A stretch of 36,329 nt of DNA from a virus (IMGVR_UViG_2737471834_000007), one strand, 5' to 3'. Numbered from the stretch's first letter, positions 33,200-36,329 are shown. Notes: generated from the sequence alone by a model not told the origin. Made by a program: numbers and translations.

Positions 33200-33382
33200 A
33201 TGTCCTATGATGAAAAGGTTATTGATGCGCTAAATGCGGCAATTTCTGTATTAGAGAAAGCGCCGGTTAATCCTCCGAATAAAGGAGAACCATCAAATAC
33301 CATTCGTAAGCTTATGCGCGAAGTGCGTAAACTCACGCTAAAAAAATATCCTCAGGCAAGCAAATATATTTTTCCTGATTAA
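33200..33382 (+). CDS. Small + strand protein (60 aa) convergent with the early operon
   Basis: AAGGAA SD 6 nt upstream of the ATG; its stop overlaps the stop of the convergent 135-aa gene (TTAA). Confidence 0.4.
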   Translation: MSYDEKVIDALNAAISVLEKAPVNPPNKGEPSNTIRKLMREVRKLTLKKYPQASKYIFPD

Positions 33383-33786
33383 TTAACTTCTGTGCCGGAG
33401 ATTTTCTCTGGCACATTTCCGACCTCAATAACCATGTTGTCATTACTTAAAATTTGCCGATAAAGTTCAAAGGCTTCTTCTGCAGGGAAACGGAGCATGA
33501 CACCGCATGCAGGTTCTAAAATCATTCCAATAGTTCCTTTAGCATCGTCACGACAAAAATGGCCGTATTCATCGTCAGGATGCAGGATGACATCTTTCAA
33601 ATCTTCGCCATTCTGAAGCTTTGATTTTAATGCCATCAGACCAGCGAACGTTCTGTGTAATTCGTGGTAGTCAACGCTGATTTCAATCTGCGGTTTTCCC
33701 GGGAAAACCAGCAAAAGCTTCTGGTGTGGTTTTTCGTTTTTCAGATTTTCCAGTTGTTCCAGTAGTACTTCATCTTCGTGATTCAT
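33379..33786 (-). CDS. Hypothetical early protein (135 aa)
   Basis: AAAAGAGG SD upstream of the ATG; acidic; first gene after the Cox-like gene. Confidence 0.5.
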   Translation of the reverse strand: MNHEDEVLLEQLENLKNEKPHQKLLLVFPGKPQIEISVDYHELHRTFAGLMALKSKLQNGEDLKDVILHPDDEYGHFCRDDAKGTIGMILEPACGVMLRFPAEEAFELYRQILSNDNMVIEVGNVPEKISGTEVN

Positions 33787-33890: not shown

Positions 33891-34250
33891 TCATGCGGCC
33901 CTCGCTTTTTTAGTTCTGCTTCGTTCGCTATGTGTTGGCTTAAATAAAAACAGACGGTTTTCCCAGTCGTGCCATTCTTGTGGAGCATTTTCGATCAAGC
34001 GATCACATGCTTCATCCCACGCTTTTCTGTTGATGTAGAGTTCAGCGTTTCCGCCTGGTTTGAGAGGGTCTGCCATATACACGGCTGGCAATTTCCCTGC
34101 TTTAGCCATGCTCACAATGGCGTTAACTGTTTTGCCGATATACATCGCAAACCCTTCTTTTGACAGGAGATGCGAGGGATTTTCTGAAAGTCGAATTTCT
34201 TCACGTTCACGTGCTTTGCGTCCTGTTTTTTGATACTCCCCCTCTGGCAT
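33891..34250 (-). CDS. Cox/Apl-like excisionase/transcriptional regulator (start uncertain: 34250, 34145 or GTG 34355)
   Basis: YIGKTVNAIVSMAKAGKLPAVYMADP resembles P2 Cox (LIGKSTGAVRRMIDKGKLPVIDMTDP) as recalled from memory; divergent from the C repressor gene. Confidence 0.55.
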   Translation of the reverse strand: MPEGEYQKTGRKAREREEIRLSENPSHLLSKEGFAMYIGKTVNAIVSMAKAGKLPAVYMADPLKPGGNAELYINRKAWDEACDRLIENAPQEWHDWENRLFLFKPTHSERSRTKKARAA

Positions 34251-34430
34251 TTCTGACAGGTGATCGCATCGTGTTCCGCAAAGTGACTCAGGCGCGTTTT
34301 GAGTGCTTTCTTGCATCTGATATCCTCCGCCATTGGTGCTCTTTCTAATTGGCACTAGTTGGAACCACTTAGAACATTTGTTTGCTGTTAATATGTGGTG
34401 TTAATCTACACATATGTAGGAGTTTGTCAA
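34251..34430. promoter_or_regulatory. Lysis-lysogeny switch region between the cox-like and C genes, with candidate operator repeats
   Basis: Inverted repeat ATATGTG-N11-CACATAT (34391-34415) and repeated GTTAAT elements just upstream of the C start. Confidence 0.45.
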
Positions 34431-34724
34431 ATGGACATTCCGCAAAAAATTCGCGTCATGCGCAAATCTGAAGATCTCACTCAGCGGGAATTCGCTGATA
34501 TGATTGGAATTTCTTATTCTGCTCTGACCAGTTATGAGTATGGTCGTAACCTTCCTGGCCTTGAGATCACTATCAAGCTTTTCAAGCACCCGAGATTTTC
34601 TAAATACCGCGACTGGTTTTTGTTCGATGAGGTCGAACCAAAGGCCGGGCAGGTGGTACCGGCTCTCGCACACATTGGGCAAAGCGAAGCGGAATCGTCC
34701 CGCTCCGGCAAGAAGACTGGCTAA
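34431..34724 (+). CDS. C: Immunity repressor, P2 C-like (97 aa from the ATG at 34431)
   Basis: C-terminal PALAHIGQSEAESSRSGKKTG matches P2 C (PALAHFGQ...SGQKTG) as recalled from memory; HTH segment near the N-terminus; AGGAG SD. Confidence 0.7.
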   Translation: MDIPQKIRVMRKSEDLTQREFADMIGISYSALTSYEYGRNLPGLEITIKLFKHPRFSKYRDWFLFDEVEPKAGQVVPALAHIGQSEAESSRSGKKTG

Positions 34725-34790: not shown

Positions 34791-35801
34791 ATGTCGATTA
34801 AGAAGCTCGCTGATGGCAAATACTGTGTGGACGTGCGGCCTGCTGGATCTGAAGGAAGAAGATTTCGGCGGCGATTTCCTACCCGTGGTGAAGCGGCGAT
34901 GTATGAACGCCATGTTCTGACGCATTATCACGATAAGGACTGGGTAGAAAAACCCATTGAACGTAAAGCGTTAAGCGATCTTCTGGAACTGTGGTGGGTG
35001 TACCACGGTAAGAATCATCGTTATGGCGCGATGAATCGGGTCAGAATTGAAGCGGTTCTTCGTGATATGCGAGAGCTTGGTATTAACAGAAGTGACCATT
35101 TAACCCGAAAAAATATTATCAGATATCGCCTTGAATTAATGAATCGTGGAATTAAGCAGTCAACGGTAAATCGTTATTGCGCAATGATGAGCGGTTTCTT
35201 TGAAAAGCTGATTGATGTTGAAGAGTTTGTGGGTGATAACCCATTTCACGAGATACGCAAGCTAACAATTAATCAGCCTGAAATGGCTTATCTTGCACAT
35301 GATGATATTCCCAGGCTAACCGCGCTTTTATCTGGCGATAATCTTAAGGCTGTATTGTTAAGCCTGGCCACTGGCGGTCGTTGGGGTGAAGTTGCCAATA
35401 TTAAAGGTGAACACATAATTGGTGGGAAGGTTATTTTCATGGAGACAAAGAATGGATCTAGGCGGGTTATTCCTATAGCTAAAGATCTTGAATCTCTGAT
35501 TAAAGTAAAGGCGACGGGAAGATTAATAAAACCCAGTTATGCAACTGTCAGGAGTGCGATAAGGAGTGTTCGACCTGATTTGCCAGTCGGTCAGTCTGTG
35601 CATGTTTTACGACACACATTTGCAACTCATTTTATGATTAATGGGGGGAATATTATTACCCTGCAGCGTATTTTAGGACATAGCACAATCCAGCAAACAA
35701 TGACCTATGCGCACTTTGCACCTGATTATCTCCAGGATGCGGTAAGGTTCAATCCTGTCGCGGAGTTGTCCAGATATTGTCCACAAATAGGGACTAAATA
35801 G
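34791..35801 (+). CDS. int: Tyrosine integrase, P2 Int-like (336 aa from the ATG at 34791; track ORF starts at GTG 34755)
   Basis: MSIKKLADGKYCVDVRP matches the P2 Int N-terminus (MAIKKLDDGRYEVDIRP) as recalled from memory; catalytic HVLRHTFATHFMINGG and LGHSTIQQTMTYAHFAPDYLQDA motifs. Confidence 0.85.
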   Translation: MSIKKLADGKYCVDVRPAGSEGRRFRRRFPTRGEAAMYERHVLTHYHDKDWVEKPIERKALSDLLELWWVYHGKNHRYGAMNRVRIEAVLRDMRELGINRSDHLTRKNIIRYRLELMNRGIKQSTVNRYCAMMSGFFEKLIDVEEFVGDNPFHEIRKLTINQPEMAYLAHDDIPRLTALLSGDNLKAVLLSLATGGRWGEVANIKGEHIIGGKVIFMETKNGSRRVIPIAKDLESLIKVKATGRLIKPSYATVRSAIRSVRPDLPVGQSVHVLRHTFATHFMINGGNIITLQRILGHSTIQQTMTYAHFAPDYLQDAVRFNPVAELSRYCPQIGTK

Positions 35802-36063: not shown

Positions 36064-36077
36064 TTAAGGAGGTGCAG

Positions 36078-36329
36078 ATGCGTATTACCATAAAAAGATG
36101 GGGGAACAGTGCAGGTATGGTCATTCCCAATATCGTAATGAAAGAACTTAACTTACAGCCGGGGCAGAGCGTGGAAGCGCAGGTGAGCAACAACCAACTG
36201 ATTCTGACACCCATCTCCAGGCGCTACTCGCTTGATGAACTGCTGGCACAGTGTGACATGAACGCCGCGGAACTTAGCGAGCAGGATGTCTGGGGTAAAT
36301 CCACCCCTGCGGGTGACGAAATATGGTAA
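36078..36329 (+). CDS. chpS: ChpS (ChpBI) antitoxin of the chpSB toxin-antitoxin pair (host gene); the chpB start codon overlaps its stop at 36324
   Basis: MRITIKRWGNSAGMVIPNIVMKELNLQPGQ...GDEIW is the MazE-type AbrB-fold antitoxin ChpS; AAGGAGG SD; terminal ATGGTAA gives the overlapping chpB start. Confidence 0.85.
   Translation: MRITIKRWGNSAGMVIPNIVMKELNLQPGQSVEAQVSNNQLILTPISRRYSLDELLAQCDMNAAELSEQDVWGKSTPAGDEIW

Follow-up and report, generated by a model that had tools for sequence, protein, structure and literature searches.

Paired CATATGT sites around the early promoter as the probable operator of a P2-type C repressor in a P88-like prophage

Background

The family model for P2-type C repressors has two directly repeated half-sites flanking a -10 or -35 element, with one C dimer per half-site, cooperativity between dimers, bending of the DNA and RNA polymerase kept off the early promoter; in P2 itself, the C footprint consists of four patches that start at O1 and reach about 12 nt past O2 (PMC1904268, PMC2995052, PMC1904263). 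The half-sites of P2 are identical 8-mers (GTTTAGAT) in direct orientation, 22 bp apart; those of P2 Hy dis are direct, 8 bp long, 26 bp apart and flank the -35 element; and those of W-phi are direct, 10 bp long (GTCACCAATA), 34 bp apart and flank the -10 element of the early promoter, Pe (PMC1904268). The related controller protein C.Esp1396I, a small helix-turn-helix (HTH) dimer like P2 C, binds cooperatively with one dimer per directly repeated palindromic site (PMC2995052). P2 has six or more cox-boxes with the consensus TTAAA(G/C)NC(A/C), 10-11 bp apart and in mixed orientation over the promoter of C, Pc (PMC3936717). A survey of P2-like regulatory regions published in 2011 lists the tentative immunity classes VIII-X (PMC3448106). 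Here we compare with these systems the switch of a prophage whose repressor belongs to the same family.

Layout of the locus

The sequence analysed, hereafter the window, is a stretch of 36,329 nucleotides from a virus (IMGVR_UViG_2737471834_000007). The element is a P88-like prophage of the P2 family that carries an ordinary lysis/lysogeny switch: among sequenced phages, Escherichia phage P88 (Peduoviridae, Xuanwuvirus) comes nearest, with 82% nucleotide identity over cox-C-int, and host chpS-like DNA follows the integrase. The gene order, cox<- ->C-int, is that of P2: a cox-family gene on the minus strand (33891..34316, 141 aa plus stop; recognized from the ORF list, Pfam PF10743 and annotation in relatives) diverges from C (34431..34724, plus strand, 97 aa), which is the first gene of a C-int operon whose second gene encodes an integrase of 336 aa (34791..35801, plus strand; ORF list and annotation in relatives). 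The original prediction of a switch region flanked by divergent cox-like and C genes is borne out by the ORFs, by Pfam and by the homology of C to the P2 repressor, but its left boundary at 34251 is wrong. The internal Met at 34250 is ruled out as the start of cox by the upstream ATG at 34316, which is conserved together with the N-terminal MQExxQN and preceded by a Shine-Dalgarno sequence GGAGG (34324..34328, minus strand, CCTCC on the plus strand, 7 nt from the ATG), and by in-frame conservation of the N-terminus, where indels among relatives keep the frame. Positions 34251-34316 are therefore coding, and the cox-C spacer is 34317-34430, an AT-rich stretch of 114 bp compared with about 110 bp in P2 (PMC3936717).

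The Cox protein has a Phage_Cox domain (Pfam PF10743) at residues 40-120 (E=4.9e-28), and relatives carry the same 426-nt coding sequence under the annotation 'Cox family DNA-binding protein'. In this phage group Cox is 135-167 aa long, compared with 91 aa in P2; the 141-aa protein of the window has an N-terminal extension (residues 1-39, window 34200-34316) in which the conserved MQExxQN is followed by an acidic low-complexity linker of variable length. Just downstream of cox, between it and a DUF4761 gene, lies a 135-aa ORF without Pfam match (33379-33786, minus strand) that is present in L127, L128 and L130-L132 and replaced by other small ORFs in L129 and L002; this region looks like a variable accessory slot. 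At the other end, prophages with an identical C and an adjacent integrase (336 aa; 331 aa in L129) are flanked by different host genes (L127-L132), namely a chpS/MazE-like antitoxin gene (found also in the window, 36072-36329), an NMN-transporter gene or a QRPTase (nadC-like) gene, a pattern that points to multiple attachment sites or to rearranged flanking DNA.

Repressor and immunity class

C matches the P2 C structures 2XCJ and 2L49 over its full length (phmmer against PDB, residues 3-97 on 5-99, E=2e-25) and carries a Pfam HTH_3 domain. P2-like and 186-like repressors are told apart by size and sequence (PMC1904268); the window's C is a full-length homologue of P2 C (97 aa, within the 97-99 aa of the P2 comparison), not a two-domain CI repressor of the 186 type, which binds inverted-repeat operators. 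As far as the sequence allows a judgement, the switch belongs to the P2-type C/Cox kind, in its repressor, gene order, early promoter and paired half-sites.

The distinct immunity specificity proposed in the original prediction is very likely to be real with respect to P2, W-phi and P88, since C shares 44% identity with the C of P2, 42% with that of W-phi and 71.6% with that of P88, and the operator sequences of those phages are unrelated to the sites described below. The comparison with P88 is the closest: P88 shares the 141-aa Cox, the cox-proximal leader and the TTGACA at the C start with the window, whereas its C differs in the HTH region (LTQEKMAEITGLTLAALRQYEQGRN vs LTQREFADMIGISYSALTSYEYGRN) and its C-proximal spacer has GTTAAT/GTTAAC motifs in place of CATATGT. 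From these sequences, P88 and the window prophage are presumably heteroimmune. We found no description of a P88 operator in the literature; GTTAAT-N19-GTTAAC, which flanks the P88-type -10, was considered for that role and left unassigned, the left copy being missing in the L005 type.

The switch type occurs in 7 of 5,426 complete E. coli genomes, none of them identical to the window, and in a wider protein collection the same repressor or the same HTH was found in E. coli, E. albertii, Shigella, Salmonella and Yersinia. The prophage of UTI89, assigned to class IX ('PhiECO5', PMC3448106), has a different C protein, only 36% identical to that of the window, which rules out class IX; with class IX as the one numbered class compared, the window's C class may already have its place among I-VII (Karlsson 2006), VIII or X (E22, 101-1). 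Neither an operator for this C class nor a characterized phage of the class was found in the literature. The operator predicted here, CATATGTRG twice at 21 bp, thus adds to a P2-type immunity class for which no characterized phage was found, and could be used in annotating prophage switches and in predicting homo- or heteroimmunity among P88-like (Xuanwuvirus) prophages; it leaves the current understanding of the P2-type switch unchanged.

Predicted early promoter and paired sites

A consensus scan identified a single sigma-70 promoter in 34100-34600, a predicted leftward Pe matching the consensus at 10/12 positions, with TTGACA at 34430..34425 (TGTCAA on the plus strand, 34425..34430), a 16-nt spacer and TAGATT at 34408..34403 (AATCTA on the plus strand, 34403..34408). 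Promoter scans recovered the same leftward promoter in Yersinia and Salmonella relatives. Its -35 hexamer abuts the C start codon, as that of P2 lies at or overlaps it; TGTCAA at the C start is common to the window, P2 and W-phi, and the longer TGTCAAATG at this place is identical in W-phi and the window.

All the repeats of the original prediction are present: the inverted repeat ATATGTG-N11-CACATAT (34391..34415), with arms at 34391-34397 and 34409-34415 and 11 nt between them, two copies of GTTAAT (34387-34392, 34400-34405) and a TAATAT (34389-34394). The placement of the inverted repeat at the promoter of C is not upheld: it brackets the -10 of the predicted leftward early promoter that drives cox, in the layout annotated for P2. 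Two copies of CATATGT, or in the window one copy and a near-copy, bracket this -10: the right core lies inside the -35/-10 spacer, and the left half-site, separated by 4 nt from the downstream side of the -10, spans the predicted Pe start at about 34396. In P2, O1 and O2 hold the corresponding positions, O1 between the -35 and the -10 and O2 immediately after the -10. Accordingly, the predicted O1-like right half-site is CATATGTAG (34411..34419, plus strand) and the predicted O2-like left half-site is AATATGTGG (34390..34398, plus strand), both assigned from conservation and from position relative to the annotated P2 sites. Read along the Pe strand, the window has TTGACA-aactc-CTACATATG-tg-TAGATT-aaca-CCACATATT where P2 has TTGACA-tggt-GTTTAGAT-ctcaa-TAGTAT-tta-GTTTAGAT. 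The half-sites of the window are about 9 bp long with centres 21 bp apart, about two helical turns, compared with 22 bp in P2 and 34 bp between the 10-bp half-sites of W-phi; they flank the -10 element, as in W-phi, rather than the -35 element as in Hy dis. The sequences themselves are unrelated, the P2 half-site bearing no resemblance to C(T/C)ACATATG of the window (Pe strand), and the window core differs further in being self-complementary, so that the pair reads as inverted too.

The base that completes some of the originally predicted motifs is private to the window. The window has A at position 34390, where the 15 further upstream haplotypes (35 other locus entries) all have C, even at 6 loci with a C protein identical to that of the window, and no complete E. 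coli genome among the 5,426 matches the window switch at 100%. Because the first GTTAAT and TAATAT exist only by virtue of A34390, and the second GTTAAT reads ATTAAT, ACTAAT, AATAAT or GCTAAT in relatives, with only AAT constant as part of the -10 hexamer, the GTTAAT repeats and TAATAT, while present, are not conserved and were rejected as functional elements. Nor does TAATAT serve as a -10 for Pc: it has no -35 at 16-18 bp, it is absent in relatives, and the scans give the leftward Pe alone. The same C-to-A change turns the family consensus CATATGTGG into the window's left half-site and might slightly weaken repression; in P2, single point mutations in a half-site do not abolish repression in vivo (PMC1904268).

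Conservation and linkage to repressor type

A repeat of this kind in one sequence is not statistically remarkable. Dinucleotide shuffles of the 114-bp spacer contained an exact inverted repeat of at least 7 nt with a loop of 3-25 nt in 11% of cases and a direct repeat of at least 6 nt at 15-36 bp spacing in 36%, and the zero expectation for ATATGTG-N11-CACATAT concerns that exact pattern only. What stands above chance is the position and the conservation of the CATATGT pair. The sample comprised 36 entries for loci of the window HTH type (with a few contigs present twice). They reduce to 16 distinct upstream haplotypes, which come from E. coli, Yersinia, Salmonella and metagenomes and share one encoded recognition helix, SYSALTSYEYGRN. 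The CATATGT core is found at both positions, 21 bp apart, throughout these 16 haplotypes with three exceptions of one haplotype each: A34390 in the window, CATGTGT at the right site of L016 and CATATGTGA at the left site of L034. Among 13 distinct 48-nt haplotypes, the hexamers of Pe are invariant (0 of 12 columns), the half-sites show variation in 4 of 18 columns, limited to a single haplotype each time, and the other columns do so in 12 of 18. Positions between the cores, apart from the -10, are among the variable ones. The relatives are closely related, and the conservation therefore carries limited weight; about four independent lineages differ much outside the sites.

The pair also follows the type of repressor. 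L002 and L006 have an identical Cox (WP_001158283.1), different C types and different C-proximal spacers, which diverge from about 34341 rightward, the sequence of L006 being of the P88 type. Prophages with two tandem C genes have the CATATGT pair if the window-type C is proximal to cox (L034, L044) and lack it if that C comes second (L032, L033). In IMG/VR, CATATGTNG-N12-CATATGTNG matched 85 stretches, of which 8 adjoin a C homologue, in every case (8/8) of the window type; the remaining 77 are unrelated, AT-richer contigs and look like chance matches. A scan of genome contigs gave spurious distant matches only, and one of metagenomes gave no new informative haplotype except a variant with a 1-bp deletion. 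Within the window, no second paired CATATGTRG was found, only single copies with one mismatch and fewer of them than expected by chance, and secondary operators of this form elsewhere in the prophage were rejected. The ATATGT-containing repeats thus came through the test that non-conservation among phages with the same repressor type would count against them, and they are the best candidates for the operator that the original prediction sought here, unlike the GTTAAT repeats.

The tandem P2-type C genes lie between the switch and int in Salmonella and E. coli prophages (L032 590-1197; L033 590-1197; L034 901-1502; L044 2347-3024, the same contig as L018), separated by 12-14 bp in L032-L034 and by about 110 bp in L044. 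The predicted operator by Pe fits the HTH type of the cox-proximal C only, and the second C, of the window type in L032 and L033 and P88-like in L034 and L044, has no cognate operator nearby. The second gene may provide extra immunity against heteroimmune relatives or be a recombination remnant.

Orientation of the half-sites

The original prediction emphasized an inverted symmetry that differs from the direct-repeat operators of P2. This distinction was not sustained. Because the core CATATG is self-complementary, any two copies of it form a direct and an inverted repeat at once, and the 7-nt arms go beyond the core only in that T34396 and G34397 pair with A34410 and C34409. The outer pair, G34397:C34409, is broken by a C-to-T change at 34409 in 8 of the 16 haplotypes with no compensation at 34397, and the direct register is kept. 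The inverted repeat at 34391-34415 is probably a by-product of two self-complementary cores and one extra pair. Across haplotypes, the direct register CATATGTRG is matched at 7-9 of 9 positions and the inverted register at 7-8 of 9. In one Salmonella lineage (L019, L120, L121), CATATGTGG occurs twice (9/9) as part of a 17-nt direct repeat, AATCTAT(T/A)CATATGTGG (16/17, 21-bp spacing), with the same recognition helix, a C that is 85% identical overall, and a diverged remainder of the spacer. These comparisons favour tandem half-sites in direct orientation, as in P2, with the qualification that a palindromic core does not by itself fix orientation in the sequence.

The strongest competing explanation, which we consider unlikely, is that the operator is genuinely dyad-symmetric and departs from the direct-repeat rule, as was suggested originally, either with a head-to-head C tetramer on (T)CATATGTG ... 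CACATATG(A), centred on the -10, or with each C dimer bound symmetrically to a local palindrome such as ACATATGT. Support comes from the inverted register, which at 8/9 equals the direct register in the commonest haplotype, and from A34410, which is invariant and pairs with T34396; but the only inverted pair beyond the core is the one lost without compensation in half of the haplotypes, the drawn arms lie 18 bp apart from centre to centre and so on different helical faces, and the L019 lineage has its 17-nt repeat in direct orientation. Further support comes from the right site, where ACATATGT (34410-34417) is an 8-bp perfect palindrome overlying the half-site, extended to 10 bp in Salmonella (TACATATGTA; in E. 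coli, CTACACA abutting TATGTAG), an extra local dyad that could permit symmetric binding. The P2 C dimer is itself symmetric and resembles palindrome binders, and C.Esp1396I does bind directly repeated palindromic sites (PMC2995052), as dimer-length palindromes 15 bp apart, compared with a core of 6-8 bp and a spacing of 21 bp in the window. An 8-bp palindrome is too short, however, for recognition helices about 26 Å apart (PMC2995052), and the left site has no symmetry beyond CATATG.

The idea of symmetric docking draws some weight from the 8-10 bp palindrome at the right site and from a P2 model that leaves open how a symmetric dimer reads a direct repeat (PMC2995052). There is a small chance that this C class recognizes a self-complementary core (CATATG or ACATATGT), the dimer docking either way or symmetrically. 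If so, it would be intermediate between palindrome-binding HTH repressors and the direct-repeat reading of P2, Hy dis and W-phi, and a simple system in which to see how a symmetric C dimer reads asymmetric DNA; the palindromic core makes the locus a modestly attractive test case for symmetric C dimers reading direct repeats in any event. The cox-C spacer of the UTI89 prophage, which belongs to another P2-type class, contains a perfect 22-bp palindrome, TTCTTCACCATGTGGTGAAGAA (L126, about 1950-1975); it counts in favour of a dyad operator and hints that some P2-type C classes lack direct-repeat operators. Taken with it, symmetric recognition in the window's class would imply that P2-type C proteins do not follow the direct-repeat rule as a whole family.

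Other explanations

It is improbable, more so than a dyad operator, that the repeats are chance features without a role for the repressor, kept by their overlap with the spacer and start site of Pe and with the leader and ribosome-binding site of C, while the operator lies elsewhere. Comparable repeats do arise in 11-36% of shuffled spacers, every conserved column falls within promoter or leader, and the relatives are close. Against this, the sequence between -35 and -10 and that following the start normally vary, as the neighbouring non-site columns do (12/18); the switches of the P88 type, the L005 type and P2 keep TTGACA and the layout, while their sequences differ by repressor type; and there is no other repeat pair near Pe and no second paired copy in the window.

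It is very improbable that the inverted repeat functions at the RNA level, as a hairpin in the leader of the C transcript (from Pc) that controls the translation or stability of C. The rightward transcript has both arms ahead of the C ribosome-binding site, and a 7-bp stem is predicted, but the predicted folding energies are unexceptional (z = -0.75 for the leader, z = -1.7 for the repeat by itself), the closing pair is lost in half of the haplotypes without compensation and there is no covariation, the Shine-Dalgarno sequence is not sequestered, and an Rfam search gave no match to a known RNA family.

Proposed regulation

We conclude that the CATATGT-core sites at 34390-34398 and 34411-34419, with the family sequences CATATGTGG and CATATGTAG, are probably the operator half-sites of the prophage's P2-type C, a proposal that draws on the layout of the locus, the homology that links C and Cox with their P2 counterparts, the conservation of the sites and their linkage to repressor type; unlike that of P2, this operator is a prediction from sequence. 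Binding, stoichiometry, orientation, promoter activity and start sites are predictions modelled on the family. By analogy with P2, each half-site would bind one C dimer, with both dimers facing the same side of the helix; they would cooperate, bend the DNA and exclude RNA polymerase from Pe, so that cox and the early lytic operon would be turned off. Rightward transcripts from Pc would have to cross the operator sites to reach C and int, which makes autoregulation as described for P2 possible (PMC3448106): relief of convergent interference would act positively, and roadblocking at high C negatively. Conversely, Cox expressed from Pe would bind an array of TTRGMAC boxes (34342-34375) over Pc and turn C off.

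Putative Cox-box array and rightward promoter

The array lies in the cox-proximal half of the spacer (34342..34375, plus strand) and is defined by TTRGMAC boxes in a 10-bp register. Its direct boxes, TTGGCAC (34349), TTGGAAC (34359) and TTAGAAC (34369), are spaced by exactly 10 bp, and directly next to them 34342-34348 holds the box in inverted orientation (TTTCTAA, reverse complement TTAGAAA). TTRGMAC-N3-TTRGMAC-N3-TTRGMAC occurs nowhere else in the window and in none of 100 shuffles, and boxes resembling (T/C)TRGMAC recur in the same register in P88 and in Yersinia and Salmonella relatives. These boxes look like a putative Cox operator. They share with the cox-boxes of P2 and the Apl sites of 186 a cox-proximal location, mixed orientation and short boxes every 10-11 bp (PMC3936717, PMC7498355), and differ from the cox-boxes of P2 in consensus and in number, with 3-4 recognizable. 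The cox Shine-Dalgarno region, CATCTGATATCCTCCG, is conserved in every relative whatever its C type.

Promoter scans detected no rightward consensus promoter in 34100-34600 or in relatives. TTGGTG (34333-34338) is conserved in all types, yet a search for Pc found no convincing -10 after it. The Pc promoters of P2 and W-phi adjoin cox and are poor consensus matches too, and a weak Pc is probably located inside the Cox array region, 34342-34375. The Shine-Dalgarno sequence of C, GGAG (34419..34422, plus strand, 8 nt before the ATG), is largely conserved in relatives, with AGAGG in some from Salmonella. Two loci carry probable lesions of the operator or promoter: in L136 (about 355-400) a 1-bp deletion turns the -10 of Pe into GAGATT and brings the half-sites to a spacing of 20 bp, and in L016 (about 1470-1490) the right half-site is the CATGTGT variant; these may be decaying prophages or assembly errors.
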